Assembly (NCBI GenBank): GCA_008632985.1
Contig: QPGO01000029.1
Span: forward strand, 632,874 to 669,539
Length of the DNA: 36,666 nt
Direction of reading: 5' to 3'
Source of the DNA: Psammoneis japonica
Lineage: Eukaryota
Made by a program: the position numbers and the translations under genes. Shown here one piece after another: positions 1 to 35,830 of the stretch; position 1 is the first letter of the stretch, and each line of letters opens with the position of its first letter. The notes beneath the pieces were generated by a model. That model was not told the DNA's origin, made no database searches, and saw nothing but the letters and a program-made list of their open reading frames with translations.

Positions 1-1035
1 AGGGCAAAACAATTTGAGCTGGAACTGACATCACAGCCAACTGCTTCAGTGTTGACTCACAGTTTTTTCATGTGCTTCTGCTTCAGTGAGTTGCTGAAGG
101 ATTGCAGCCCATCATGGCATGTCAGCCATTGCATGTTTTCTTGTTTCTTGGCAACTGCATTTTGCTTTTCTGAAACTGCTCACTTGTTGTTGAGTGCAAC
201 AAAGTTGCCCTTTGTTGATGCAGCAATTTTTTGTGCAGTTGCATCTTTTCTTGTGCATCTTGTCACTCATGATGCCCTTCTCCATTGCACTCATTTGGAG
301 CTGAAAATCTGGCTTTGAGATGGTGCTCTGCATGCTCTCTCCATCATTGAAACCCTTTTGTCTGCCTGGTTGTCATTGCAGTGCTTTGACTTCATGTGTT
401 GCAAAAAGGGCTCCCTGTGCCAATCTGTTGTGAAATGTTTGCAGCTGTGTCAGGAGGATGCTGGTCCCCTCTTGATGACCTGTCAGCCAAGCTGTTTTGG
501 AAAATCAAAAGACTTTGGAATCTGTTTGTCAAGCATGCACTGAGCATGCAATTGAAACAAAAAAGATTTGAGTGTCCACCATGGCAACTTGTTGGCTAAA
601 TCTGCAACAGAATGGCTGCTGCCATGCTCCTGCCAAACATGGCACCAGAAGTTCTTGTGACAAGAGCTTTGCTTTGCAGAGCCAGAAGAGATGTCAAGCA
701 TGACAAACACAAGCTCTGTCATGTTCATGCATTGCCCCCACTGGTCAAATTCTCCTGCTCCTTTGTGCAAGTTCTGAAAGCATCTTTCTAAATCTGGCTG
801 CACTGACTGAAAGGACTGAGAGTTCAAGAAATGTGCTGTTGTCCTCTAAAAGTTCATTCAACAATGACCCAGCATTTTTCAATGCCTTTTCTTCAAGAGT
901 GCATGCAACTGCTTGGCAAATGATGCTCTTCCTCTGCACACCCCTGCTCTCAATCACTTTTTGTGGCCAACAAGATGACAAAATGGGCATGTCCAACCAC
1001 TGCTGGAACTTTGAGGCAAGAGGCAGTTTTCACAG

Positions 1036-1265
1036 GACAGACAATGTTGCAGTGAAGGACACACTGATGATTGTCAATGATGTGGTGAATTTGCATTTCT
1101 GGCTCAGGTTGAGTTGTGGGTCTTGTGATCACTGTTTGGCTTCTGCACCCAGCCAACATGGCAGTGGTGGTCAATGGCATCAGGAATGTGTTTGCAAGCC
1201 ATGTGGTGAGGTTGGGGTTGGTGAGACCAAACGTGTGCCAGTCCTCAAGCCTTGACACTCCAACA
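1036..1265. repeat. Diverged ~230-bp direct repeat, copy A (copy B at 2691-2934)
   Basis: Shared blocks gacagacaatgttgc, aaggacacactgatgattgt, ttctgcacc, aatgtgtttg, agccatg, gtgtgccagt/atgtgccagt and ctccaaca in the same order. Confidence 0.85.
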
Positions 1266-1654
1266 CAGCAGCCAAAAAGGCACAGCACAAAACTCAAAGA
1301 AGCAGCATCATTCAAAGGAAAGGCTGCCTGGGAAGTCATCGGGGAATCCAAAGGCACAGGCTGGAAAGTCATCAGGAACCCAAAGGGGCAACTCATGTTG
1401 GCAGATTGTGGCAAACAAGCTGGCTGAACAAGGGCAAAGAAACAGTCTCTGGATGGCTTTGCTGTGAGAAAGCTGTCAAGGGTCCTCTGCTGAAAGAGGG
1501 TGCAGCACGGTTGCAATGGGCTGGAACAACATGGGCAAGGATGCAGCTGAGTGTGGAAGCACAAGAGGCTCAAATGCTGAGTCAGCTCATCAGGCAGATG
1601 GTTGCACAGCACCACAAGGAAAATTGGTGAGTGTGTCAGAAGAAAGTTTGGCCC

Positions 1655-1740
1655 AGAGATGCATGCACTGGCATCTCTGAGGCAGGAGAGCATGCCAAGA
1701 GATGCACGGACTGGCATCTCTGAGGCAGGAGAGCATGTCA
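1655..1740. repeat. Tandem duplication, 2 x 43 bp
   Basis: agagatgca..actggcatctctgaggcaggagagcatg.ca starts at both 1655 and 1698. Confidence 0.9.
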
Positions 1741-2690
1741 AAAGAGCTGGAGCATCTGTTGGGAGATGCCACATCAGAGAAGGACAAGGCAACCTGGGGC
1801 AAGCATCAATGCAGTCACCATGTGAAACAGAGTGTGATCCACAAGACACAGAAGGTGAAAGGCATTTAACACAATTGTGGGACAGTGCACAAATGCTGTC
1901 CACCACAAGGTTGAAGGAGTGACAGAGTTGCAAAGGAGTGGGATGTGATGACAGCACTGTTGGAAATTCTCATGCAGATCTTGTTTGGTGCAAATGAGAA
2001 AATGCGCTTGCATGTCCCGGCAGTCAAGGCTTGGAAGCAATTGGTGCTCACTCATCAAGACAAAGGAGAGGCACTTCAAGATCACTGTGATTGGGTTCAC
2101 AAGCATTGTTGAGAGATGGTGGAAACACCCTGCAGCAGAGGAGTCATCTGAAAAGAAGTTGTCAAAAAAGAAGATGGGCTCAGCTTGGACACTCATGACA
2201 CCCCCGGAACAAAGAAAAGAACAAGTTGGTGGTGGCAATGCCAATGGAAGGAGGTGCCAAGCAATGTTGGCACATTTTGAAAGACCCTCATCAGCATTTT
2301 GTGCTGGGGGCCAATGCACTTGTCCCAACTCGGCTGAGGGGGCACTGCAGATGAGTTGGGCACACATGGGGCCAACAAAAAACCCAAGGGCACAAGCCTT
2401 GTGCAAAGCAAGAAGAAGAAGCAGGTCAAATGCCAGACATGCAACAATGTTGAGCACCATGTGAGAAAGAACTGTCCTTTTGCTCAACGGGGATGATGAG
2501 ATGACTCACAGCAGATTTGGATGATGTTGCATGCAGGCCACAGGAGTCAGTGAGCAGTCAAAGCAGTGTTTGATGGCATGGTTCCAAAGTGTCATCCTCT
2601 TGTGCTTGATGCACACAAGGCCAATTAATTGATGACTTGTGCAACAGAGTGTGTTGGAAAATTGGGGGGGGAGGTGGTTTTTGCAGGAAA

Positions 2691-2934
2691 GACAGACAAT
2701 GTTGCTTCCTTGCAGTGAAGCAAGGACACACTGATGATTGTGGCTGACACGGTGAATTCATGTTCACAACTCAGGTCACATTGCAGGTCTCATGCTCACT
2801 TTTTAGTTTCTGCACCTGGTGAACATGTGGCAACAGCAGTTGGTGGCATTGGAAATGTGTTTGTGAGCCATGCGGTGAGTTTGGGGTTAGCGAGACTGAA
2901 CATGTGCCAGTTGGCAAGCCATGATGCTCCAACA
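2691..2934. repeat. Diverged direct repeat, copy B (copy A at 1036-1265)
   Basis: Aligns by eye with 1036-1265. Many differences are TG<->CA swaps. Confidence 0.85.
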
Positions 2935-3420
2935 AACACAGGGCCCAATGAGTCAACTTCTTGCCGTGGTTGTTTTAAACTGGAAACCACTGCAACAAGG
3001 CTGCAGCCCTCTCTCCATTTTTCTTTGTGAGACATGTTTTCAGTCAGCTTGAGGGATGAAATGGTGGTGCAGCACTTGCTTGTGATGTTTTCATGTCATG
3101 CTGCTTTCTCCCAAGGTGAAAGCGCTTTTGTGATCTCTTTTCCAGATCTCTGCTTCAGCAAAACTCTGCTGCAGGTGCACAAAATCAGTCTACAGCACAG
3201 GGTTTTGCCACGTCGCTGCCAGAGCATGAGTTTTTCAAATGAAGACGTGACGGCGCGCGACAGGCTGAGGTCCTCAGCTGTCCAATCATGCCATCTTTGT
3301 TAGTTCGCTCTTCCTCTATTGCAGCACTCTAGAGAGGAACTCTAGAGCTACTACTGCCGTACTCGAGAGCGAGTGGTCTGAAACAGAAGCTTCGTGCTTG
3401 GTGTTAAAATGATTATTAGT

Positions 3421-4509
3421 TCAAGGGTTGTCGTCCCCTTCCTTTGTCCACGACGTCAAAGCCTCGTCTAAGCATTTTCTTGCATCTATCAACTTACTCT
3501 TGCCATTGCCAAAGTCAATTCCAATCTCTGATCCACTCTCCTCGTCACCAGAACTTTCGTCATCATCGCTGCTAGAGTCCTCTTGAAATTTTTCGTCCAG
3601 CAGGGCCACTAGCTGAGCTAGATGTATTTGAGCTTTTACCAGTTTCTTTCTAATCACTTTCCTCTTTGTACGTTCTGGCGTGCCCGACCCCGACAGAGAG
3701 GAATCTTCACTTGCAGTTTCATCAATGTCATTCGCCACGCCTTCAGCTGCTCGCTTTGCGTCTCCTTCTTTCTTGTTGTCAATTCCAAGGCGCACCTCGT
3801 CCCTCGCCTGTGAAAGAATTTGCTGCACTTGTTCTTCTTCGGACGGTTCCAGTTCGATTGATGCAGTTGTATCTTTGTGCGAATAAAACGAGACGCCAAG
3901 TCGTCTCAGCCCTTTATTTATATCCGAGACTCGCTCTTTTGAAGTTTTGAAACCAGACGGGAGTGTCGCATTCAACTCTGCTAGGCGTTCTTCGAGGGAG
4001 CTTTGCTGCTGAACAACATCTTTTGGTTCCGACTCCTTTATTTTTACATCATGCTTTCCAGTACAAAACAAGCTGGAAAAGATAACGAGTCTCTGATGAA
4101 TTTCTTCTTCGGAAATTGAGAGACAGAGCGGTTTTTTCCGCGACGGCTTGGAATCAACCGCGTCCTCTTCGACGGTTACGTCGTCTCGCGTACTCTTGTC
4201 CTTGTCATTCTCACTTGTAATTGCTTCGAAAAAGCAAGAACGTCCTCGCATTCTGTACTCGAAACTTTGACGCCCATAGAGCTCTGAAATTTTCGTCTGC
4301 TCCTCCACGTTCGAATCATTCGTCTCGTGTTGACTCTTGGAAATTTCTTCGGCGAGCGATTCTAAAATGTTCGTGGCTTGTCCAAACGAATCAGCGGCAG
4401 ACCACCAATCCTCCTTTTGTTCTAGTTCGTTGCCTTTTTTGATGAGTTCAAATGCATTGTCCAACTTCTCCTCTTGCGATGTCATTGCTTTTAGACTCCG
4501 TTGCGACAT
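3421..4509 (-). CDS. Hypothetical acidic helical protein (362 aa), possible N-terminal MIT-like helical bundle
   Basis: Uninterrupted ATG-started ORF with normal composition. N-terminal LDNAFELIKKGNELEQKEDWWSAADSF resembles MIT-type helices (weak). Confidence 0.65.
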   Translation of the reverse strand: MSQRSLKAMTSQEEKLDNAFELIKKGNELEQKEDWWSAADSFGQATNILESLAEEISKSQHETNDSNVEEQTKISELYGRQSFEYRMRGRSCFFEAITSENDKDKSTRDDVTVEEDAVDSKPSRKKPLCLSISEEEIHQRLVIFSSLFCTGKHDVKIKESEPKDVVQQQSSLEERLAELNATLPSGFKTSKERVSDINKGLRRLGVSFYSHKDTTASIELEPSEEEQVQQILSQARDEVRLGIDNKKEGDAKRAAEGVANDIDETASEDSSLSGSGTPERTKRKVIRKKLVKAQIHLAQLVALLDEKFQEDSSSDDDESSGDEESGSEIGIDFGNGKSKLIDARKCLDEALTSWTKEGDDNP

Positions 4510-7847: not shown

Positions 7848-9285
<1,438 letters not shown>

Positions 9286-12689: not shown

Positions 12690-12714
12690 GGTTTCATGTA
12701 CGAGTAGGCGTGAG

Positions 12715-12973
12715 TGATTGACCTAGTCGGAAGAGGCGTAGAGAGATTAATGGGTGAGGGCGTACCAGCAGAAGCGCTACCTCACTTTCTCACTTGCTCA
12801 TGTTCTTCCACCCATTCTTCAACGCGCCTAGATATTGTCAAAACATGCATCTACGTTGTAAAATAGATTGAGACTTACTGTTGAAAATGGTTTCATTCTA
12901 GACATGAGATGATTTACCTAGTCGGGATAGGTGTCGAGAGATTGATGGGTATGAGCGCATCAGCAGAAGTGCT
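12715..12973. repeat. Pair of 64-bp diverged direct repeats (12715-12778 and 12910-12973)
   Basis: Ungapped alignment, 12 mismatches in 64 nt. Confidence 0.85.
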
Positions 12974-13704
12974 TGCTCGGATGTTCACGTTTAGACCAAC
13001 TGCGCAGCCTAGATTGAGTCAAAGCATTTTTATTTCAAATTTGTTGAAACCAAAGGTTTGGGTAGAGCATACAGCAAAGGCACAGGTTGGTGCTCTCCTG
13101 GTTTTGATTGAGACAGTTTGCTCCAAGAGACTTCCTCCTGAAAAGCCGCTTGCTGAAACTCTAGCAACACACCTTTGAAATCCAACAGAATGTGAGAAAG
13201 AGAAGCAGGGACAAGATAAAAACACTGACAGAGCTCAAAAATCTGATCTTGAACAAAGTGCTGCTCTCTGGGAATGTCGCGCTTGTTGTTCATGACAGAC
13301 GGCAGGGTTGGAAAACCAAGCAAGGAGGTGGCACTGGGGCAGAGCAGTGTCAGATGGAGAATTCACAATTTGTGGCACATGCATGCCAGAGTCAGCTGCT
13401 GCTGGAAGCAGGTTGCTGCCAGCTGCTTCTTGTCAATTTTGTGGAGGTTGTCACACGCCACTTTCTCAATCAAATGGCACAGGCAGGCAAAGTGTTGCGC
13501 CACATGTCACCTGCCTTGGCACCGCTGTTTTTTTTTTGCTGCTCTCAGCCCCTCCAGACTGCATGGCTGGCCTCTCTTTTTCATCATCACAGGCTTTAGA
13601 AACAAGTTTTTGTGCTCCTCCCACTGGCCACAACTTTCTTTTTGCTGTCATGTCGGCGCTCTCAGGCACAGTCAGTCTCATCTTGTCTTTTTTGTGTGTG
13701 GTCG

Positions 13705-13728
13705 TCTCTCTCTCTCTCTCTCTCTCTC
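13705..13728. repeat. (TC)12 microsatellite
   Basis: Direct reading. Confidence 0.95.
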
Positions 13729-14633
13729 TGTGCACTTGACAATTGCTGGGGACTCATCGCTGGGGAGGGCACGTGGCTGGAGGGAGGCATTTGGCTTCCT
13801 GGGCTGGCGCAACATCTTTTGCAATGCATTTGCTGGCAGAAGCTTGTTTGCATGATCAAGGCTGGTGATGGGTTGCATGGTTGGCATCTCTTTCTCATCA
13901 TTGCAGGCTTTGGAAACCTGCTTTCATCTCTTCCCCCCACTGGGTGCTGTGCTCTTTTTCTTGGTGGCGCCGTGTCATTCTCCCACTTGGGCTGGGATCT
14001 CCATCAGGTTGTGAGCCACACTTGTGCTTGGTGCAAGTGGGGCCCCTCTGCTGACCACCAACACTCTGAAAACACTCTTTGACTGCCTCATTGACAGCAA
14101 CAAAGACCGTTTTTTGCACACTCTTTCTCGTTTTTGTGGCCGCAACATCTCTGCCACAAGCCGGCAAATCTTGCGCCATCGTTGTTTGCATCCGCTGCTG
14201 TTGCTGCAGCTCTTGGCATCAACTCCACATGCGTGCTTTTGTGCATGCAAGTGCCGACACCAACAGCCCCATGTGCGCCACGGCTCACAGACCACTGCAT
14301 GACCATGGCACCGGCGAACAGCACCCGTTCCAAAACGGCAGCATCTTGGCGGGAACGCACATCATCTCTTCAAGCAGCCACAAGGCAGCAGCAATGATGC
14401 ACCACCACACTGTTCACTGGCAGAACAGTGCTCCCATTCTCAATGGGCCCGCCATTCTCCTGGTGTGTTGGGGTGTCAGTGGCGCCACATCGCTCCTGCT
14501 TGGGTTGGAGTCTCTGCCACTTTTTGCTTTTTGCCGCTGTGCAGTTGCTTGCTTCTCTTCTTGTGTTCTTGTCTGAGGACTCTGGCACACATTTTGTTGA
14601 CAACAGCAAAAGAAAAAAGATCACAAAAACAGC

Positions 14634-14640
14634 AAAAAAA
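14634..14640 (-). terminator. RNA polymerase III terminator (T7) of tRNA-Leu
   Basis: Seven T on the minus strand, 3 nt after the discriminator base. Confidence 0.8.
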
Positions 14641-14643
14641 GGT

Positions 14644-14822
14644 TGACATCGGCAGGATTTGAACCTGCGCCAACGAAGACTGCAGCCTAAATGCAGCGCC
14701 TGATCGAAATTAAGGGGCGGATGATTTGTGAGCGGATGTGAACGAGTGGTCTGGTGCGTATGTAATTAGTGGTCGTTCGGTAAGGTGATGTCACTGACCT
14801 TAGACCACTCGGCCACGATGTC
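14644..14822 (-). tRNA. trnL-UAG: tRNA-Leu(UAG); exons 14822-14799 and 14699-14644, split in the D-arm by a 99-nt insertion
   Basis: Joined exons give GACATCG TG GCCG AGTGGTCTA AGGC G CTGCA TTTAGGC TGCAG TCTTCGTTGGC GCAGG TTCAAAT CCTGC CGATGTC A (80 nt). Perfect 7-bp acceptor, 5-bp anticodon and 5-bp T stems. A box TGGCCGAGTGG, B box GGTTCAAATCC, anticodon TAG at 14689-14687, discriminator A. Confidence 0.93.
14700..14798 (-). other. 99-nt GT-AG intron-like insertion in the tRNA-Leu D-arm
   Basis: AAG|GTCAGT 5' end, GCTCAC branch-like motif about 30 nt before the 3' end, TTTCGATCAG|G 3' end. Removal restores the D-stem exactly. Confidence 0.8.
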
Positions 14823-15945: not shown

Positions 15946-18370
15946 TTACCAGCTGCCATGCTCGATACTAGGCTGTCGCTGGCGTTTGAGTACCTCGGTT
16001 CGAACCTCCCGGTGCGTCGACACGACACGCGGCGTATTCATAGCTTTTTCGTTTGCGCGAACAAGAGATCTAGATGGCGACAAGCTCATGTCTTGAAATC
16101 CCATTGTGCTGTCATCAGATTCTGGTGTTCCATTGTGGCTTTCCATAACGCTCTCATCGTCCGATAATGCGTCGCCGTCTAGGCTTTCCTCATCACTACT
16201 ATCGTCATTTTGAATGGGAACCACGTCATTCAAAGCATCGGGTTCCTCGATGCATCCCTCCCATTCTCTATAAAAGGAAAAATAAACCCATGCGATTGTC
16301 GCAGCAGGTACGGATCAAAGGGAAAAAACGAGTCCAAGGGATTTTACCACCGCCGAGTCCTCCCACGCCTTGAGCTCTTCGCTTCATGTCCAACGTGGCG
16401 GTCGTCGTAATGAGGGTGGCCTTTGACTTTTTTCGTAGTAAAGAAGTCATGCTTCGATCTTCCACAACAAGCTTGTCCAAAAGCTTGGGACTTAGCAGAT
16501 GGAACACGTGCGATACATGAAGAAATTCCCCGCGCACACTCTCCAAACAATATCGAAGTGGATCAAGATTATGGCGGCAAATTCTCTCCCATCTCTGTGG
16601 AGATATATCGACACAGAGTGGGTCAACCTTGACCGAGCCATCATCGTCCGTCATGGTATCCATAACATTGGATGAGTCGTCCCTCTCCACGACGGATTTG
16701 TAAAATTGAACAGCATCGCTTCCACGAAAGCACATAATGTAAAACTCAGCCTGACAGATGGTATAAAACAAGGGATGCGTGTCGCATTGTTCACGAGCGT
16801 CCGTGTGCTGTTGCTGCTGAATAGCCATTCCAGCCATGGAATCCAAATAGGCTTCACTCCAACGCAAAAGGGCGCAAAGACTCTCACAAACCGTTTCCGT
16901 GCAGACGTAGGAAGCCCTACTGACAAAGGAAGCCAAGTAGCATGCCGCACTCTGTCTCGTCACGGTGGCGCGATAACTGTCAAAGACAATCTCAATCAAC
17001 TTGGAGCAAAAGTCTCGATAGAGACCCTCCGAATCATGATGATGCGACGTTGTAACTGCTGCGCCGTCTACTACAAGTCTGCCGTCTGGAGATGAAGCAG
17101 AAGTATTAATACCCTTGACATCAAGTCCACAGACGTAGAAAATGACAAATTGAACAAATTTGGATCGGTGCGTTGTCAATACGGACGATTCAAATACGGG
17201 AGAAAGCATGGCAAAGATCAAGCTTGGTCGAAACGTTCCGTCTTGAGCCGACTCGTAAATGTGCTCAAAAAGAATATGCATCAGGCAATCCAACTTTGTT
17301 TGATCATATACCAAAACAAGAGAGAAAATGAGAGAATTAGACAAAAGAAATGCGTTCATTGAAATGATGGATCTTGTTCCGTTCACAATGCGTTACCTTA
17401 TCAGCCATCTCATCCACTTTTTTCTCAACGACATCCTTGTTTCGTGTTGGTCCGCCGACAATTCCAGGTCAAACACATCATGCTCGTCCGTCATTTCTTC
17501 TTCCATCGACACTTGACCTCCATCATCAATTTTGATTTCAACATCCATTTCAAGATACTTGTCAATGAGCAATTCCAAGATACTCCCATGTACGGAGGGA
17601 ACGTACTTGGCAACACGCAAACATTGTCGTGTATACCATTCCAATTCTTCTTTTGGTTTGTTGCGAAAGGGAAAGTGTGATGCCAGTACGGGAAAGACAT
17701 TGCCCATGGGAACGAGGCGTAGCAGGGTGGCAAGTGTCGCGTGCAATCGTGCTGTGCGTTCTTGTCCGCCTATAGTGGTGGTGGTTAACAGTTTCCATAT
17801 AGCATTCAATGCCGGAGTCAAAAAGACCGAATTGGCGCTCACCAAGGCCACGACCAAGTGTAAATGAGCCGTGGAGAGAGAATAGTCTTTGTACAGAGAC
17901 AAATCGTTCTTGTTGTTGCTGCTGTTGTTGGACGGTACTTTAGACTGTGGCGGTTCAAAGGGGTCCATTCGAAATATCAAGTGCACCAGCTGAGCATGTC
18001 GTTTGGGATCCCGCGTCAAATTGTTGAGCGTCGATCCAGCCGTGCGAAGCGCCACGAGCACTTTGAGAAGCATGGGAGGGTCGTCCCTCTTTCGAAGACA
18101 ATCCTGAATGGCACGATACCCCTGAGGCGGTCTGGTGTTTTCGGGATAGCACACGGCGCTCATGACAAATGCCTTGACGGGTTCGAGCTCTTGTGGCGAC
18201 AGCGCTTGGCACGGCGGGAGTACCATCATTGGCATGTTTGATGATGATTCGTCTACTAATGATTCAGACGCCTGATTTTCGGCTTGAGCATCCAACGAAG
18301 ACGTTCCTTCCTGATCCATTGACTCGGAAAAGTGCACACCGGGTGCACCTACCGTGGGCACCGCCATCAT
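15946..18370 (-). CDS. RRN3: RNA polymerase I initiation factor RRN3/TIF-IA; intron 17294-17396; apparent one-base losses near 17441, 16345 and 16272
   Basis: LEMDVEI, DEMADK|LDCLM, THRSKFVQFVIFY, RQSAACYLASFVSRA, FYTICQA.FYIMCFR, LDPLRYC, NPLDSFFPFDPYLL. Confidence 0.92.
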
Positions 18371-26990: not shown

Positions 26991-28607
26991 TTAATTGCCA
27001 TTAGATACGAGCTTGCGCTTCTTTCTTCGTCCCTTTTGTCCGTTCGTTTCAGATTCACCATTCGAACCTGTTTTCTTTCGTCGTCGGCCTCTTCTCCCTC
27101 CAGCAGCAGCCTTCAACTCCTTCATGACTTCATCATCTAGATCATTGTGACCAGTCTCGGGACATAGTTTGATTCCAACAAGAAGATAACCTCCATTCTG
27201 ACTCATGTTCATATTTGGATGCGTCCTTCCTGGCAGTACCTGGTATTCCCGCATCCACGTGTCGGTAAGTCTCAGATTGATGGCCAATCTTTGTCGCTGT
27301 ATTTCTCGAAAGCATTCAATCAGCGGCTCCATGAATTCACAATACACAACAAATGGACACGACGGAGCTAAAAACCGCAGCAGTGGCAAGAGAGTAGCGG
27401 TTGGATCATAGCGGGCAACAATCACCAAGGAATCACAAGCACGCGCCGACAAGAAATTCTTGACTTCCATGGCCGATTGACGAGTGAGCTTTCTGGCAAA
27501 TCGAGCCGAGCGTTTGGCAAGAAAATCTGTCTTTTCCCGTGTCGTCGCCATGCCTTCCATGTATTCACGAGTGTGGTCTTGCAATGGACACGGCCATTGG
27601 ACTGCCTCGCGTTCGGCTCGTTCTTCATCGTACTCGGGCTCATTTGGCAATTGAGTATTATCTTCATCATCAGCAAAGACTTCGCCCGAGTGAATCCACT
27701 TGATGGATTGGTTTTCGGCATAGGAAAGGTTGAAACGAGCAAGCATGTCATTGTAGCTCGGTTGCCCACCACTATAGACCGAGATGACCTTGCCATAGCC
27801 TCCCATGCGCTGTGCAAACGCCCCCGTGACGACACCCACACAAGTTTCAACTAACAAAACTTGGCAACCCGCGCTGACATTGGAGTAACTCAAAATCTGT
27901 GCGAGAGTATCTTCCCGCATATTCATGAGTCTCCGTGGATCTCGTGAATACAGTGCCTCACAAATGGATGCCGCCGTACAACGGACCATTCGACATCGCT
28001 GTTGGTACTTTTTCTGCTTGCGTGCAATATACTTTGCCTTGCTAAACTGCGTCTTGGCTTCAAAGGTGGCGGAGTTTTCAATGAGCGCCGCTACAATTTC
28101 GGACCCCTCGGCACCCGCATCTCGAAGGTTCATGACTTGTTCCTGATTCATGGATTGGGATTTGTTGTTATCTACAAGATGTCTATTGTCGTTGGCTTGT
28201 TCGTTTGAAGGAGTAGCAACAACTTTACCACCATTGTCTTGCATTTCGTCGTCGTCATCGTCGCACTCTTGGCCCAATATTGCGGATGAATCCGGCAAAA
28301 GCTCTTGTCCTTCGGGTAGCGGCACGAGCTTTGTTCTTCCCAACTCCAAGACGGTTCCATAGGGCAATCCAATTAAATTTTTGGTGGGATAGGATCGCTT
28401 GTTGACTTTGACTGGCGGACTTTTCCCCTTCCAACTCGAAACGCACTGTGCAAAGATTTGTCGTTCGTCGGAAAACACGAGAATGACATGATCGCCCTCT
28501 CGCGTAATGTTGCTCTCGTGAATTACTAACGGATCGGGTATTTCTTTCTCAGTACAAGCTACCTCCTTATCAGTCATAGTCTCTGTTGTACTTGTACAGT
28601 CTGCCAT
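26991..28607 (-). CDS. TRM6: tRNA m1A58 methyltransferase non-catalytic subunit Trm6/Gcd10
   Basis: NLIGLPYG, DNRHLVDNNKSQ, LIENSATFEAKTQFSKAKY..RKQKKY, MREDTLAQIL, WMREYQVLPGRTHP.M. Start placed at ATG 28607 inside the longer ORF. Confidence 0.93.
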   Translation of the reverse strand: MADCTSTTETMTDKEVACTEKEIPDPLVIHESNITREGDHVILVFSDERQIFAQCVSSWKGKSPPVKVNKRSYPTKNLIGLPYGTVLELGRTKLVPLPEGQELLPDSSAILGQECDDDDDEMQDNGGKVVATPSNEQANDNRHLVDNNKSQSMNQEQVMNLRDAGAEGSEIVAALIENSATFEAKTQFSKAKYIARKQKKYQQRCRMVRCTAASICEALYSRDPRRLMNMREDTLAQILSYSNVSAGCQVLLVETCVGVVTGAFAQRMGGYGKVISVYSGGQPSYNDMLARFNLSYAENQSIKWIHSGEVFADDEDNTQLPNEPEYDEERAEREAVQWPCPLQDHTREYMEGMATTREKTDFLAKRSARFARKLTRQSAMEVKNFLSARACDSLVIVARYDPTATLLPLLRFLAPSCPFVVYCEFMEPLIECFREIQRQRLAINLRLTDTWMREYQVLPGRTHPNMNMSQNGGYLLVGIKLCPETGHNDLDDEVMKELKAAAGGRRGRRRKKTGSNGESETNGQKGRRKKRKLVSNGN

Positions 28608-28958
28608 GTTGCTTTCAACCAACGGAAAATCTCCGCCGTCTTTGAATGATGGTGTGTGTGTGTTGTGTTGCTTTTCTTTACAGTGTATTCGTTGTCGCGT
28701 TGCATGGTTGTTGGTTGTTGAAGGCAGGAGCAGCAACGGACGGACAGACGACTCATCTCTTCTGACTTGCTCGCTTTGCTTTACTTCTCGCTCATTCTCT
28801 ATGTAGACTATCTCATCACTCTGGAACTCATCACCGTCATACTTTGGAACTTGTTGCATTATTTGCTTGCCTTATTTGCGGCTTTATTGTCTGCTAGATA
28901 TCTGGAACTGTAGAGGACACTGTATATCATTGAGAATTCCCGTGTACAAATATTCGCC

Positions 28959-29695
28959 ATGACTGATGATTCATCGGCATCTGCTTCAAGTACTGTTGCC
29001 GACAATAATGAGCAAAAAAGCAACGCCGACAAGCAACAGTGTGACAAGTGGGTAGACTCTGGCTTGACTCGAAACATGACGGTCCAATTTTTGCTTCAAA
29101 ATCTCGTCGACATGGGCTGTAAACCTCCTCCTGGTTTTATCCGCTGCATGGATTGTGGAGATCGCAAGGCTGGCGGTGGCTTTGGAATGGTGGAAGAAGT
29201 CTCCATCGTGCCGGACGAATCCACAAAACGCCGCGCCGCCATTCCACAATGTCAACGAAGCGTCAAAGATTTGCAAGATCAATTGCAAGCACAAGCCGAC
29301 GGCAAGGTCCAATTGAAATTGTCACCCGAAATATTTCTTTGTCAACAACACATGCGCAACGAAACACACACTCATCAATCCATGGTACACGAACTCATTC
29401 ATGCCATTGACATGTGCCGGACCAAGATGGATCCGTTGCACAATTGCATTCACATGGCGTGTACGGAAATTCGAGCGGAAAATTTGAGTGGCGAATGCGG
29501 TATGCTACAAGAACTAAAGGCGGGACGAGTGGAGGGTCGATAGTCAAGCACGGACAGCAGTGTGTCAAGCGACGTGCGGCACTGTCGCTAAAGGCCAATC
29601 CCAATTGTGCGGCAAAAGCACACGACTATGTGGATGCTGCGTTTGAACGATGCTTTAAAGATACCTTTCCTTTTGATAGACATCCGAGCTCATAG
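28959..29695 (+). CDS. ATP23: Mitochondrial inner-membrane metalloprotease Atp23 (peptidase M76); one-base loss near 29535
   Basis: AGGGF, IFLCQ, HELIHAIDMCR, HMACTEIRAENLSGEC, CVKRRAALSL, FERCFKDTFPF. Confidence 0.93.
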
Positions 29696-29797
29696 CAGCA
29701 TTATAAAGAAGATTTAGAAAGAGACGGCCAAAGTAGAAAAGCAACTACGATAGATCATTACAGAGTTCACAAACACAGCTATTATTATATTTTGCGT

Positions 29798-30509
<712 letters not shown>

Positions 30510-31049
30510 GATTGTATGAGTTTGTTGCGTTCAAAGAAACGTCTGTATGGCAATTACAAAAAACAAAGAGATGTGTGAGAGGATATGAGTCGGAGTGTGC
30601 AAAAAGAGTACGCCATGTCGGTCTTTCGCCATGCTTTTTCTCTCCACAACCAATCCAGCGCTGCCAACAAGGACTATACCACAACATGTTTCGAGACGAT
30701 CTTTGCCATGGTGACAGCCGCCGTCGCTTTCAGCAATTACAATCCACGTACCGATAACAACAAACAATCAACACTCGCACAACAGTCGCAACGATGGCGG
30801 CAGCGCGGTGTGTTTCTCCGCCGTCCGACCTGTACGTAGAATTTGTACTGAAGTGTACGTGTAGTGGGTAGAGCGACTTACCGGCTTACTAACACGTTAT
30901 CCGTTTGACAGTGTCTAATGTAAAACTCAATGTCCGACCGAAACTGAGATTGGATCTTTTTCGTCTGTCTCACATACTTTTTCTCGCCATGACGAGAACA
31001 AAAAGCAGATCGCGACGCCTAAGTTTACCTGTAATCACCAAACAACAAA

Positions 31050-32176
31050 ATGAGTACAACAACAAGACAATCCTTGCTCACTGCACGCACTGGATCGCTG
31101 CGGTTTTCTTCCCGGTCTACCGAAGCACCGGTGTTGGAACGACCACCCATTGTATTGGAATACAACGCGTCGGTGGTTCGGATTGGCTTGGCGGAAAACT
31201 TCAAGCCACACTACGTGGAAGCACTCAAGAATAGCAATAATGATATCCAGAAATCCCAACAACAATGGTATGCGGAATTGGCACCCGTCATTTCCAAGTT
31301 ATGGGACCGACTCTTTTTGGCGTCGTCATCGTCGCCTCGACGAGTTCTTGTCGTGACTGTATATGTCATGCCGCAAACTTGGACGACCGCCATGACAAAC
31401 ATGCTTACAAGTCTTGGAGCAATTGTTGGCGTCTCGTTTGTTTCACTCTTGGAAATCATTCATTATGGTATTGGTTGGAAACGTGGTATACTGGTCCATG
31501 TCGGACGACAAGAGATACATGTCGTGGCTCATGTCGACGGACGAGCGCTGGACGATACGTTGCAAAGTAAGAGTTACAGCATTGCATTGTTGTTTTTTGT
31601 GTATTCGAGATGAACATTTGTACAAAACGCTGATACTTGCGTGTATTGTATCCATGTCTAGTTGTGCCCTGTGGATACGAGCGAGTCGTCGTCATGAATG
31701 ACAAGGAGACGACGGCGGTTTGGAAGGACGACACGATGGATTGGCATTGGCTCGATGAGACCCACAATCCACACAGTCTGCTATTTGCACTCTTGAAAAC
31801 AATCGAGGCTATTCCATTGGATGCCAAACGAGATGCGGTTTCCAATATAGTCATCACGAGTGAAGTAGCATTGGTACAAGTGCTGACGCAATTGGAAAAG
31901 CGTCTTGGGCAACGACTTGTGGCCGTCCTGAAACAAGACAAACTACCGCCATTGTCGTCCACCATGAGGACAGATGTGGTAACAGAACAAGAAAGCACAA
32001 CAACTAGAACACCAACACAGTACAAGACCATGTCGTCATTGGCACCGCACGTTTCCATTGTTTCGACAAGACCGAATCGACCCGACATGGTTTCATGGAT
32101 GGCAGCCAGTGTGTGGGCAACGGTGATGCACCGGCAATCCGGCTTTCCAAAAGTGGACACGAGGCCTATTGTGTAG
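31050..32176 (+). CDS. Divergent actin-related protein (Arp10/Arp11-like); intron 31567-31661
   Basis: PIVLEYNASVVRIGLA, RRVLVV, GILVHVGRQE, TIEAIPLDAKRDAVSNIVITS, SWMAASVW follow the actin-fold motif order. The GT-AG intron restores the frame. Confidence 0.65.
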
Positions 32177-33949: not shown

Positions 33950-34940
33950 CAAGAATCAATCATCACACATCGCACTTTTCTACTGCATCCTCGACTCGTG
34001 CTCCGTGGGACTGACTTCGTCACGGGACTCACGACTGAAAAAACTTGCCTCCGACACTGTCTCCGCTTGTGAGGCCCCAACTTCATAATGTGTTCACCAT
34101 GGCCAACTAATGCACACTTCTCTTTCATTATTTTCACTTTCACCATGTTTTTCATTTCTAACTGAGTCCACTTCTGCATGTTCAACAATCCATCTGTTTT
34201 TTGTTTGCTTTTTGCCACTCTGCTCTGCACTGTCCTCCCCGCTCCAAATGGCGTTGCTCTTCCAAAATGAATGCTTTCCTTCAAATGGCTTCTTTTCATC
34301 AGTCATGCTTGGCACTGCAACTGGTTGCACTGGTGTGTCACTCTCATTCTTTGCACTTGCACCAGCTCCAACTTGAACATGTGCCTCGCTCACAACATTC
34401 CTCGTCGTCAGCTTCGTCTGCAGTCGGCACCCAACGTGCTTGCTGTCCTTTTTTCAATTTGCAGAGCCACACATTTCAACTTCCATTCTGACAACACAAC
34501 TTCTCCTGGACAATGCCTTGCCCTTGCTTTCAGTGTCTCAATGTTCAACTCTCCAATTTTTGCAGCTTCAGCGGCTTTGCCACTCGACTCTGTGTTGTCA
34601 TTGGCGCGCTTGTGGAATCCTTTTCTGCATTCAAAGAAGTTTCTCCAATGGTCAATGTGAACAATTTCATTGGCACCTTGCACATGTGCCCTCTCTTTTC
34701 TTTTGATTTGTTTGTGTTCAAAGTTTTGTCATTTGGTGGCTCTTTTTCACTTTCCACTGGCTTGATTTTTTTGGCGCCACTTCCCAGCTTTGTTTTGCAG
34801 CTTGTTCTTTCAAGCTCATGCTCTCCCATGGGATCAGACTCACTCAAGTTCACATTGCATGTTGAGTCATTTGCACATCATCCACCTCTCCTTTGCTGAC
34901 AAGTGGATGATGCTCATGTCAGAATGCCTGGTTGGTGCAC
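33950..34940. repeat. TpA-depleted degenerate sequence of unidentified origin adjoining the copia relic
   Basis: Few TA dinucleotides, CG partly retained, Tyr-free ORFs. Confidence 0.55.
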
Positions 34941-34949
34941 ACAATGAAA

Positions 34950-35830
34950 TGTGTTCTTCGTGTTGACACAATGAGTCGCAGTGACAAACTTGCCAAGTCC
35001 CAAGGGGCTCAGGTGCATCCTTGGGCAGCATCTCTTCTGCATTGCCACACACCATGTGTGCCCATTGATGCACTGGCTTGGGAAGGTCTGGAACAGACCC
35101 ATTGATTGGGGCATCGGTGAGATGTCTGTCGGCCACTGGTCACGCCTTCTTGTGTCAACCATCATGTTGCACATCACACACAAGGTGCGCTTGAATCTTC
35201 TTGTGTCCCACTTGGGGTGTCAATTCCTTGTGGTGTCCACAGTCACAGCGCAAGAAAGAAGACATCACACTCTCAAAAATGGGTCATGTTAAGATGGGTT
35301 GCATGTTCCCATTTGTGGTTGCCGCTGTGCTTGTCAAGGGTCATGGCATGCCTGTGCAGCCCCATGGAACTTCACACCCATGCTTGCAACAAGGCACGCA
35401 GTGTGGAAGGAGCGAAGCTTGGCCTGGTTCCTCTGGAAATGGCGCAAAAATGCTTCCAGCCTTTGGCCATTCTCACGTGCACAGATGGTGCAAGTGATGG
35501 GGTCATCATCCTTGATGATGATGGCAAGTGGCTCAGATGCTGTCTCCCACTTTTCCACCACTTGAGCATGACATTGCAGCTCCAACCTTTCCAAGAGAGA
35601 TTGTGGGGCTTCTTCAAAATGGTCCTTTGTATGATGTGGTGCATTGTCTTTGTTGTCTTGCTCTGTGTGATGGATGATCCCATTGCAGGCAAGGACTTCT
35701 TTGCATTTGTCATTGTTGACCAAGCAAATAAACTTGGTGAGTTTGGGGTTGCCACCAATCTCCCAGTCGTGGTCCTCAACAACTGCCTTGACAATGCGGG
35801 CTCTTCAGCAACGGCCCACTTGGACAGCAA
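34950..35830 (-). mobile_element. Decayed, internally deleted Ty1/copia (CoDi-like) retrotransposon pol fragment
   Basis: Across frames: RARIVKAVVEDHD...KFICLVNNDKCKEVLACN, SCNVML, SEPLAII..DDPITCTICAREN, NQAKLRSFHTA, CKHGCEVP, HLVCDVQHDG, VADRHLTDAP (start of RT), jumping straight to WAHMVCGNAEEMLPKDAPEPLG and GKFVTATHCV (RT/RNase H junction). Motifs recalled from diatom copia pol. No LTR seen. Confidence 0.85.

Follow-up and report, generated by a model that had tools for sequence, protein, structure and literature searches.

Organization of the locus

The window, the 36,666 nt stretch of DNA analyzed here, appears gene-dense and intron-poor, with long uninterrupted open reading frames (about one per 1.9 kb). 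It holds three stretches from which the dinucleotides TA and, to varying degree, CG have been purged (blocks 1 to 3), and the first of these contains the remains of a mobile element:

1..3210, unstranded, block 1: TA- and CG-purged stretch (dinucleotide counts and edge profile)
1001..1265, + strand, 5' LTR-like direct repeat, copy A (blastn, alignment A1)
1576..2514, + strand, dead gag-like gene with a CCHC-type zinc-knuckle relic at about 2428-2478 (phmmer, tblastn and family HMM)
1651..1736, + strand, 43-nt tandem duplication inside the gag relic (1651-1693 / 1694-1736, 93% identical, repeat family D3)
2652..2934, + strand, 3' LTR-like direct repeat, copy B (blastn, alignment A1; purine run at 2664-2674)
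13165..14687, unstranded, block 2: TA-purged, CG partly depleted (dinucleotide counts)
34162..35728, unstranded, block 3: TA-purged, CG partly depleted (dinucleotide counts)

Three blocks depleted of TA and CG

For positions 1-3240, the initial annotation had described a scarcity of TA, few CG and an excess of TG and CA, all of which our counts bear out, the TA scarcity having been understated. TA occurs 9 times against 222.0 expected from base composition (observed/expected, o/e, 0.04) and CG 16 times against 181.7 (o/e 0.09), while CA reaches 360 against 185.9 (1.94) and TG 388 against 216.9 (1.79). Block 1 itself (1-3210) has 9 TA against 220 expected and 14 CG against 180, with CA and TG at o/e 1.94 and 1.80. 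It begins at base 1 of the window, so that its left end lies outside the view and may extend upstream; its right edge is sharp, with TA and CG back within about 100-200 nt of 3210-3240. Two further blocks had been missed by the initial annotation. Block 2 has 2 TA against 87 expected, 38 CG against 101 (o/e 0.37), CA at 1.89 and TG at 1.58, and carries a (CT)n run at about 13706-13729. Block 3 has 2 TA against 100 expected, 25 CG against 90 (o/e 0.28), CA at 2.09 and TG at 1.70. The three clusters, 1.5 to at least 3.2 kb long, thus share a TA o/e of 0.02-0.04 and a CA/TG o/e of 1.6-2.1; CG stands at 0.08, 0.37 and 0.28 in block order, against 1.04 outside, with TG and CA gained.

As the initial annotation had said of the neighboring DNA, the window minus the three blocks (30,366 nt) uses both dinucleotides freely (TA o/e 0.57, CG o/e 1.04), and by the edge profiles the host genes flanking the blocks are unaffected. 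The longest TA-free runs, of 1131 (34159-35290, in block 3), 1091 and 1020 nt, all lie within blocks, against a maximum of 201 nt outside them. Among 80 RagA-anchored metagenome loci of relatives (404,548 nt), which serve as a control only, as repeats rarely assemble, the longest such run was 248 nt and no TA-free block was found.

The deficit of TA plus CG is close to the gain of CA plus TG in every block (377 versus 344, 149 versus 137 and 163 versus 165 in blocks 1, 2 and 3), and neither AA and TT (o/e 1.10-1.38; AA alone 1.23-1.38) nor AT is depleted. When both conversions were applied to the window's other DNA in a forward simulation, the CA/TG level of about 1.9 was reproduced; in this simulation the 12 other dinucleotides failed to tell the models apart. 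CA and TG are interleaved in the three blocks without strand runs (runs test, z of 0.81, -0.11 and 0.95), and by this test no strand-clustered mutation events were found in the blocks. Within 14001-14750, TA falls to 0-2 per 500 nt although CG is at o/e 0.53-0.60.

A dead element with LTR-like repeats in block 1

Block 1 contains a multi-copy element of about 1.9 kb at 1001-2934, bounded by LTR-like repeats, with a dead gag-like gene. By blastn, 1001-1265 pairs with 2652-2934 at 70.5% identity over 285 columns. Read from the letters, copy A starts with TG and ends with CA, the boundaries being inexact, and the 5-mers immediately preceding 1001 and following 2934 match at 4 of 5 positions, a possible target-site duplication. 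Contigs of other copies break off at 1036 and at 2934, and the summed depth reaches up to about 1300 in block 1, where unique DNA lies at about 60. Positions 1-667 are TA-purged although their summed depth in run X1 is only 91, not far from the roughly 60 of unique DNA when 80% likeness is required; in block 2 the corresponding depths are 71.5 (13341-14007) and 160.6 (14008-14674), and older duplicates of less than 80% likeness would escape this measure. The initial annotation had suggested that repeats or heterochromatin are targeted; silent mobile DNA has been hit in block 1, but the TpA-directed hypermutation does not appear to be strictly repeat-triggered, since parts of the blocks are near single-copy at 80% likeness and purged all the same. 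A second run, X2, behaves like RNA, skipping 84 and 82 nt with CT..AC ends, and leaves almost no cover on blocks 1 and 2.

The gag-like gene is broken by seven TGA and one TAA in frame +1, plus frameshifts. Its read-through translation (P0001) matched the gag-like protein P0002, which is stop-free and apparently full-length, with a phmmer E of 1.2e-19 among 1.84 billion proteins, and P0002 in turn matched the window by tblastn with E 3e-22 at 1576-2478, frame +1. One peptide stretch is seen twice by tblastn, in frames +3 and +1, due to the 43-nt tandem duplication. An HMM of the family matches 1608-2514 in frames +1, +3 and +2, and elsewhere in the window gives one non-significant match only (17549-17641, i-E 3.7). 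The family proteins are 323-386 aa long and lie on contigs of 1.2-4.6 kb; 8 of 13 carry PF00098 in precomputed annotation, while no Pfam family scored on P0001, the window's own knuckle relic included. P0004 and P0005, repetitive proteins matching short stretches, were dropped as chance matches, and P0017 (E 1.1e-6, 42% coverage) was excluded from alignment A2.

The 81 ORFs of 50 aa or more in the three blocks, searched against Pfam, yielded chance-level matches only, the best being knuckle-like with E 0.003. No protease, reverse transcriptase or integrase family was among them, so the element at 1001-2934 would be at most non-autonomous, carrying gag only, and no primer-binding site was recognized in it. 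Scanning metagenomes for a 26-nt degenerate pattern taken from 2019-2044 returned 0 matches, and word-based protein searches with window:953-1969:- and with window:1915-2109:+ (the latter at 'longer' lengths) returned no match. Blocks 2 and 3 showed no Pfam family and no match to the gag-family HMM; that they are mobile or foreign DNA is our assumption. Rfam at gathering threshold gave no match, with one sub-threshold tRNA match beside block 2, and ARAGORN found no tRNA.

Tyrosine codons give the direction and strand of TA loss

Each of the 12 apparently full-length (stop-free) gag-like relatives has 11-21 tyrosines, compared with none in the 423 residues of P0001. These relatives must contain TA; the initial annotation had named equally TA-free intact copies as what would speak against its reading, and its reading withstands this check. 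The codon change TAY to CAY turns Tyr into His, and TAY to TGY turns Tyr into Cys. Comparing the relatives as proteins, which polarizes the direction of change at Tyr sites only, we found His or Cys in the window copy at 9 of 18 Tyr-majority columns and at 23 of 272 other columns (Fisher p 1.9e-5); restricting the comparison to the better-aligned core gives 8 of 14 and 15 of 182. In P0003, another decayed relative, 11 of 14 Tyr-majority columns carry His or Cys, as do 6 of 202 elsewhere (p 4.5e-12), and the choices made in P0003 differ from those of the window copy at the same columns. Against its close relative P0008, 11 of the 57 differences of P0003 are Tyr-to-His (7) or Tyr-to-Cys (4). Since His is about as common as Cys at Tyr columns (5 versus 4 in the window, 7 versus 4 in P0003), the process acted on two strands, which one-strand RNA editing would not do. 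CpG decay at the protein level gave no significant signal at Arg-majority columns (2/6 versus 63/290, p 0.39).

Over 276 aligned columns we counted 78 differences between the two LTR-like repeats, 57 being transitions, with 17 CA/TG swaps, three CG/TG, two TA/TG and one CA/CG among the differences. As the repeats belong to one copy, their CA/TG swaps place mutation after insertion. Among the 24 differences listed between other copies and block 1, 12 make up six paired CA/TG swaps and five are single transitions at YR steps; CG/TG and CG/CA differences are also present between copies. Twelve strings from other copies (287 nt, counted by eye) hold no TA, against about 11 at the window's background rate, and six CG. 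At the locus itself, a 1600-nt contig of run X1 covers 1-1560 with three different letters, among them TA versus TG at 598 and TG versus CG at 990; this run is a single sample of a single study, possibly the very source of the assembly, so that it excludes assembly error rather than providing independent biology.

The loss of TA is therefore a derived, DNA-level, two-strand mutation, and neither native composition nor an artefact, given the Tyr-rich relatives, the His and Cys at Tyr columns and the CA/TG swaps between LTRs. Different copies acquired it independently of one another, as did the two LTR-like repeats of a single copy; it affected both strands about equally and is confined to sharp-edged blocks beside normal genes. 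A second process beyond CpG decay, converting TpA to TpG or CpA on either strand, had been postulated in the initial annotation and is supported by the Tyr replacements, the independent choices in two copies and the LTR swaps.

Sequence context of the surviving sites

The 13 TA sites that survive in the three blocks lie in CTAA (three), TTAA (four), TTAG (three), CTAC, ATAA and GTAT (one each), in agreement with the TAA/TTA-type contexts named in the initial annotation. YTAR accounts for 10 of the 13, versus 211 of 1201 TA sites outside the blocks (p 5.7e-6). TA loss is thus context-dependent, with YTAR sites (TTAA, CTAA/TTAG) refractory. Surviving CG lean to RCGY, especially GCGC (17 of 77), a flank rule opposite to that of surviving TA. 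The natural context of ADAT is Y-T-A-R, as in the tRNA anticodon loop with its pyrimidine 32, U33, A34 and mostly purine 35, and the UAG favored by ADAR falls within it as well. A plain ADAT- or ADAR-like sequence preference does not fit, because the refractory YTAR is the favored context of these enzymes. The YTAR rule is a constraint that any candidate enzyme must reproduce.

Comparison with known systems

To our knowledge, hardly any defence that works by mutating mobile DNA has been described beyond RIP in fungi and APOBEC and ADAR in animals. Like the process seen here, RIP is a dinucleotide-specific transition hypermutation that kills mobile DNA in place, in sharp contrast with neighboring genes. 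It runs in the opposite direction, as the initial annotation pointed out: RIP converts CpA to TpA and enriches TA, whereas the blocks lose TA and gain CpA and TpG, the reverse of the RIP hallmark of raised TpA and lowered CpA/TpG. RIP also mutates C and requires duplicated sequence, while the TA purge mutates A or T and appears to extend to near-single-copy stretches (at 80% likeness). Ordinary decay of methylated transposons by 5-methylcytosine deamination resembles the CpG part of the signature, with CG at 8-37% of expectation and TG/CA gained in the blocks only, but accounts for none of the TA loss. In Escherichia coli, very-short-patch repair of deaminated 5-methylcytosine is thought to turn a TA-containing word into CA/TG words and so to cause CTAG scarcity; this bacterial effect is word-specific, genome-wide and mild, whereas the TA loss described here is confined and near-complete. 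The APOBEC3 and ADAR enzymes of animals likewise hypermutate retroelements and viruses by deamination, a proposed innate defence, but their substrates are single-stranded cDNA or double-stranded RNA in the course of replication, and the resulting clusters are strand-asymmetric, while the blocks were changed on both strands equally, without strand runs and after integration. A preference of ADAR for a 5' U is mentioned in the Discussion of a recent preprint (bioRxiv 10.64898/2026.01.13.699255). Diatoms carry RID-related DNMT4 genes, described as of unknown function (PMC9998398), which could bear on the CpG part only.

TpA-specific hypermutation is not unprecedented, although it has so far been measured only in the alga Bigelowiella natans, where that preprint reports it live as TpA-to-TpG/CpA changes in mutation-accumulation lines (Mettrop et al., bioRxiv 10.64898/2026.01.13.699255, 2026). 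Of the 231 mutations that the preprint counts in two integrated viral regions, 230 were A-to-G or T-to-C changes, and all are said to lie on TpA; the rate per generation is put at about 1000-fold over background, with the process active in some lines only. The authors also list 124 clusters in the genome that are poor in TpA and rich in CpA+TpG, and they put forward an ADAT2 homologue as the responsible enzyme, in a study that they themselves call not conclusive. Our literature search on TA purging, which took in the main text of this preprint, found no other description.

As far as the preprint's main text describes it, the process in B. natans is alike in acting on either strand, in hitting discrete regions beside normally evolving genes, foreign or mobile in B. 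natans and mobile here at least in block 1, in its apparent ability to target single-copy DNA and in its long-term footprint of kilobase clusters poor in TpA and rich in CpA and TpG, for which our three blocks lie well past the preprint's cut-offs of 0.43 and 1.52. TpA-poor genes in B. natans are reported to be enriched in TE-type domains (reverse transcriptase, DDE, zinc finger), and block 1 likewise holds a mobile-element relic. What we see is the footprint in sequence, the one hint at a rate being the TA/TG and TG/CG differences between the X1 contig and the window in 1560 nt. The depletion is much deeper here (o/e 0.02-0.04, versus a rho of 0.45 in the giant-virus insert of B. natans), what has been hit in block 1 is an element with LTR-like repeats and a gag-like gene, and a tetranucleotide rule is visible, with YTAR refractory. 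CpG is also depleted here, whereas the main text of the preprint does not deal with CpG, flanking context, retrotransposons or diatoms. B. natans genes have a mean of 8 introns of 182 nt (PMC13746701, Table 1), which the intron-poor genes of the window do not fit, so the host is probably a lineage other than B. natans.

Proposed explanation and alternatives

We consider it likely that the blocks are silenced mobile or foreign DNA rewritten by TpA- and CpG-specific transitions, with a TpA-directed enzyme acting as a defence. The relics would have been inserted first, and two dinucleotide-specific transition processes would then have rewritten them. One would convert TpA to TpG or CpA, by A-to-G on either strand, and have gone near to completion, with 2-4% of TA left; the other would convert CpG to TpG or CpA less evenly, sparing 8-37% of the expected CG. 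The TpA process may be of the same kind as the TpA-specific hypermutation of B. natans, namely deamination of adenine to hypoxanthine in DNA at TpA, and most likely enzymatic, a mechanism suggested by likeness to that one preprint. The candidate enzyme, which in line with the preprint's proposal (bioRxiv 10.64898/2026.01.13.699255) could be related to the ADAT/TadA deaminases, would be directed to silent or foreign chromatin and so provide a mutational genome defence. The CpG decay could be the usual loss of methylated cytosine by deamination, within the same silent DNA.

An A-to-G change on one strand is indistinguishable in sequence from T-to-C on the other, and CpG decay accompanies TA loss in all three blocks, both of which would agree with a thymine-side or repair-side mechanism in place of adenine deamination; we nevertheless regard this as unlikely. 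Oxidized thymine (of the 5hmU, 5fU or base-J kind) at TpA would pair with G and lead to T-to-C, or error-prone patch repair after deamination of methylated CpG would mutate nearby TpA. In some protists TpA is indeed the preferred site of thymine modification, and WA motifs are where polymerase eta introduces A-to-G errors. A deep WA-motif signature of this polymerase should deplete AA, and we rejected it because AA, TT and AT are not depleted; nor does TA loss scale with CpG decay, being equally complete where CG is well kept (14001-14750). Still less probable is editing of RNA at UpA by an ADAR- or ADAT-like enzyme, fixed by retrotransposition so that copies are born hypermutated, even though known adenosine deaminases favor a 5' U and block 1 is a retroelement with LTR-like repeats. 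Sense-strand editing would give Tyr-to-Cys only, but His is as common; copies born hypermutated would not account for CA/TG swaps between the two LTR-like repeats of one copy; the nearly single-copy 1-667 and 13341-14007 are also purged; and the targets in B. natans are, per the preprint, integrated single-copy DNA mutating in real time.

We give hardly any credence to native composition or selection, by which the element families would be free of TA by design or through selection, such as evasion of a nuclease that cuts at TA or of transposons that target it, leaving the CpG decay as the one mutational part. It would agree with the visible fragments of other copies, all TA-free with some CG kept, and with the equal absence of TA from three unrelated blocks at any CG level. 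The tyrosines of the apparently full-length relatives, the copy-specific His/Cys replacements and CA/TG swaps, and the eight stops and frameshifts of the window copy, a dead gene in which selection cannot maintain TA absence, refute it for block 1. Practically negligible, in our view, are gene conversion with a GC bias between repeat copies and an artefact of sequencing or assembly due to modified bases. Block 1 is indeed multi-copy and modified bases do cause systematic miscalls on some platforms, but we rejected GC-biased conversion because the undepleted AA, TT and AT leave no general W-to-S bias, and low-copy parts are purged too. A modified-base artefact was rejected because the short-word contigs of run X1 reproduce 1-1560 and the unrelated database protein P0003 carries the same signature.

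On the preferred reading of TpA- and CpG-directed rewriting of silenced DNA, the window would be the end state of a TpA-specific process in an apparently different organism from B. natans. New here are the probable second lineage, the retroelement target, the co-occurring CpG decay and the context rule with YTAR refractory; TpA loss is tied to a retroelement and to CpG decay, and its derived, two-strand nature is demonstrated at the protein level through Tyr to His/Cys. If the host is a diatom, it belongs to an ecologically dominant and genetically tractable group in which to hunt for the enzyme. Only tentatively, and with more doubt than trust, would we extend this to TpA-directed DNA hypermutation as a widespread defence in SAR or wider eukaryotes instead of a trait of a single chlorarachniophyte, acting here beside CpG methylation through an agent of an undescribed kind. 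If so, retroelements and other invaders would be driven to complete TA loss in a second lineage with few introns, which may be a diatom, and the sparing of YTAR would point to an undescribed DNA adenine deaminase or thymine modifier. For annotation, TGA is the only stop that can interrupt any of the six frames of a TA-free block, and such blocks will therefore be miscalled as genes and missed as transposable elements.

Three blocks depleted of TA and CG

Dinucleotide counts bear out the scarcity of TA and CG and the excess of TG and CA that the initial annotation had described for positions 1-3240 of the window, where only 9 TA (222 expected from base composition) and 16 CG (182 expected) are present, and CA and TG reach 1.94 and 1.79 times their expected counts. 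Its statement that neighbouring DNA uses both steps normally also holds, with observed/expected (o/e) ratios of 0.57 for TA and 1.04 for CG across the 30,366 nt outside the depleted blocks. The annotation had listed a single block; this one stood, and a sliding scan found two further blocks that had gone unlisted:

1-3210, block 1, cut at its left end by the window start
13165-14687, block 2, TA 2 vs 87 expected, CG o/e 0.37
34162-35728, block 3, TA 2 vs 100 expected, CG o/e 0.28

Block 1 ends sharply on its right, both dinucleotides returning to normal within 100-200 nt of 3210-3240, and blastn found no sequence relation among the three blocks. In each block the number of missing TA and CG is close to the number of CA and TG gained (377 vs 344, 149 vs 137 and 163 vs 165), the pattern expected of transitions at pyrimidine-purine steps. 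The longest TA-free runs reach 1131, 1091 and 1020 nt within the blocks and at most 201 nt elsewhere in the window, and no TA-free run longer than 248 nt occurred in a control set of 80 RagA-anchored metagenome loci of relatives (404,548 nt). At 14001-14750, TA is held to 0-2 per 500 nt although CG o/e is 0.53-0.60; the loss of TA is thus equally complete where CG is well kept, so that the two losses are separable.

A dead LTR-type element in block 1

Contigs from X1, a DNA run of one sample, were matched to the window at 80% likeness. Unique genes have a summed depth of about 60, compared with 481-1301 across 668-3335, which marks the latter as a multi-copy family. Other purged stretches lie near single-copy X1 depth (91 at 1-667 and 71.5 at 13341-14007), so repetition at ≥80% likeness is not required for purging. 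One 1600-nt X1 contig matches 1-1560 with three differences, so this sequence is no assembly error, although X1 may be the assembly's own source. Within the multi-copy part lies a unit of about 1.9 kb, starting with TG and ending with CA, that is bounded by:

1001-1265 and 2652-2934, LTR-like direct repeats, 70.5% identical over 285 columns (blastn)

Contigs of other copies stop at 1036 and 2934. The 5-mers flanking the unit (996-1000 and 2935-2939) match at four of five positions, possibly a target-site duplication; if so, the element entered DNA that was itself TA-free, and the blocks may be insertion nests.

The interior, read through in frame +1 with seven TGA and one TAA stops as X, matched P0002, an apparently full-length gag-like protein of 343 aa with a CCHC knuckle, at E 1.2e-19 among 1.84 billion proteins, and tblastn with P0002 returned window 1576-2478 (E 3e-22). 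A search with P0002 yielded 13 proteins of 260-386 aa, 8 of which carry PF00098. The profile of 12 family proteins matches the window at 1608-2514 alone, shifting among frames +1, +3 and +2, its sole other match being non-significant (17549-17641, i-E 3.7). A Pfam search of the block 1 ORFs found no pol domain. The LTR-like repeats, the multi-copy depth and the stop-interrupted gag-like match indicate that block 1 contains an LTR-type element, now dead and at most non-autonomous, whose gene is gag-like. For blocks 2 and 3, neither Pfam searches of their ORFs nor the gag-family profile returned a homologue.

Tyrosine positions record the loss of TA

Tyrosine is encoded by TAY only, and a TA to CA change gives histidine whereas TA to TG gives cysteine. 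The 12 apparently full-length (stop-free) relatives contain 11-21 tyrosines each, and the window translation (423 residues) none; intact copies equally free of TA, which the initial annotation had named as evidence against its proposal, are thus not what the family contains. At columns where tyrosine is the majority residue, the window has histidine or cysteine in 9 of 18 cases, compared with 23 of 272 elsewhere (p 1.9e-5), and in the better-aligned core in 8 of 14 compared with 15 of 182. The other nine tyrosine columns hold leucine (2), serine (2) and one each of glycine, alanine, arginine, valine and phenylalanine, several of them in sequence that is frame-shifted or aligns poorly. These replacements, set against tyrosine-rich relatives, imply that the ancestor had TA and that the loss arose by mutation.

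Decay of this type, to differing degrees, also appears in the sequences of database relatives. P0003, itself a decayed copy, retains two tyrosines and has histidine or cysteine at 11 of 14 tyrosine columns vs 6 of 202 elsewhere (p 4.5e-12); of its 57 differences from its close relative P0008, 11 are tyrosine to histidine (7) or to cysteine (4). Among the 12 full-length members, histidine or cysteine is rare at the tyrosine columns (12 of 214), five of these 12 being contributed by one member, P0009 (5 of its 18). The decay of P0003 and P0009 suggests that the process acts also in the source of those sequences. The window and P0003 differ in which residue was chosen, a conserved Tyr-Tyr pair having become His-Cys in the former and Cys-Cys in the latter, so TA was lost independently in separate copies. 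Histidine and cysteine are near balance (5 vs 4 in the window, 7 vs 4 in P0003), which indicates that both strands were affected about equally.

Changes after insertion

The two LTRs of one element are expected to be identical at insertion. Between the LTR-like repeats, 78 of the 276 aligned columns are now mismatched, 57 of them by transitions, and the aligned pyrimidine-purine steps comprise 41 identical pairs, 17 CA/TG, 3 CG/TG, 2 TA/TG and 1 CA/CG. CA and TG are two changes apart, yet each is a single change from a CG or TA ancestor, and most of the divergence therefore reflects CG or TA sites that were resolved independently once the element had inserted. From the 17 swaps we estimate 30-40 ancestral CG or TA sites in 276 nt, assuming an element once of ordinary composition; this agrees with the combined density of CG and TA that is normal for the window (9.7%) and is about twice the supply from CG alone (5.8%).

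Other copies give a similar picture. Among 24 differences listed between block 1 and other copies, 12 pair up as six CA/TG swaps; the rest comprise 5 single transitions at pyrimidine-purine steps, 2 transitions outside such steps and 5 transversions. Twelve insertions found in other copies (287 nt in total, read by eye) contain no TA, compared with about 11 expected at background, and 6 CG. The same-locus X1 contig compared with the window gives TA against TG at 598 and TG against CG at 990. CA and TG are randomly interleaved in the three blocks with no long one-strand tracts (runs test z 0.81, -0.11 and 0.95). An ordinary-gene control at 28000-31200 fell significantly below the expected number of CA/TG runs (z -3.65), probably owing to strand-specific coding composition.

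Context preference and mechanism

Of the 13 TAs surviving in the blocks, 10 have a pyrimidine before and a purine after (YTAR: TTAA, CTAA/TTAG), compared with 211 of 1201 outside (p 5.7e-6), so a purine before T, or equivalently a pyrimidine after A, favours conversion. Surviving CGs show the opposite flank preference, with RCGY at 27 of 77 in the blocks vs 379 of 1754 outside, and GCGC at 17 of 77.

Taken together, these comparisons firmly indicate TpA to TpG/CpA transitions at the DNA level that occurred after insertion, on both strands, in a context-dependent manner and confined to the blocks, accompanied by a CpG decay that is separable from them. The tyrosine replacements and the LTR swaps support the initial proposal of a second process that turns TpA into TpG or CpA on either strand. 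A natively TA-free composition is disfavoured by the tyrosine-rich full-length relatives, and RNA editing of one strand by the histidine/cysteine balance and by the differences between the two repeats. Because AA, TT and AT are undepleted in the blocks, a WA signature of the polymerase-eta type is disfavoured, as is GC-biased conversion.

For the TpA transitions we infer, at about even chances within this favoured reading, enzymatic adenine deamination: an enzyme would deaminate adenine at TpA and would be directed to silent or foreign chromatin. In ADAT substrates the anticodon loop has the YTAR context, which also includes the UAG favoured by ADAR; that this very context is spared counts against an enzyme that is simply ADAT- or ADAR-like. 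Modification of thymine leading to mispairing with G would leave, in sequence alone, a record indistinguishable from that of adenine deamination.

Comparison with known systems

Our literature search for TA purging, whether of transposons or in diatoms, found nothing beyond a preprint on Bigelowiella natans (bioRxiv 10.64898/2026.01.13.699255). According to it, 231 of 302 nuclear point mutations in mutation-accumulation lines fell in two integrated viral regions. A-to-G or T-to-C changes made up 230 of these 231, all of them located at TpA, with a rate of about 6e-7 per site per generation and in only 11 of 15 lines. The genome contains 124 clusters poor in TpA and rich in CpA plus TpG, the TpA-poor genes being enriched for reverse transcriptase, DDE endonuclease and zinc-finger domains. 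Mettrop et al. suggest that an ADAT2 homologue deaminates adenine in DNA and that this has a role in defence, and call their own study not conclusive. The window footprint is of the same kind. CpG, flanking context, retrotransposons and diatoms are not mentioned in the main text of the preprint.

In B. natans the average gene contains 8 introns with a mean length of 182 nt (PMC13746701, Table 1), which does not fit the window's uninterrupted genes, so the host would differ and the window is probably a second lineage with TpA hypermutation. TpA hypermutation as a kind was already reported in 2026; the phenomenon here is real and striking, and to the earlier report the window adds this probable second lineage, a retroelement as target, protein-level proof of direction, a link with CpG decay and a flank rule. 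Fungal RIP converts CpA to TpA, and the annotation's view that it works oppositely agrees with TA being destroyed here, not made. Diatom DNMT4 genes, of unknown function, are related to the RIP enzyme RID (PMC9998398), and could be relevant only to the CpG part.

Surroundings of the blocks

The remainder of the window is gene-dense eukaryotic DNA, with about one gene per 1.9 kb and long, mostly uninterrupted ORFs, and encodes:

RRN3
TRM6/Gcd10
RagA/Gtr1
RRP7
SpoU-type methylase

Just left of block 2, TA-containing DNA carries a short direct repeat (12705-12778 and 12899-12973, 80% identity across 75 nt). Directly adjoining the right edge of this block is a tRNA match below threshold (RF00005, 14652-14718, minus strand, 18.9 bits vs a gathering threshold of 29, E 0.2), and a D-arm-like stretch was seen by eye about 100 nt beyond it (to about 14830), as if a tRNA gene held a long insert; ARAGORN found no tRNA.

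Contigs of X2, a second run labelled 'DNA?', skip 84 nt (8089-8174) and 82 nt (8845-8928) with ends CT..AC. The skipped stretches are two GT-AG introns in a gene on the minus strand, which makes X2 a probable transcriptome despite its label. Just outside block 1, at 3489-3656, X1 shows 11 variants in about 170 nt at about half depth (28-34 of 68-75); these look like a second, quite divergent haplotype and suggest either that the organism is a heterozygous diploid or that the culture was mixed.
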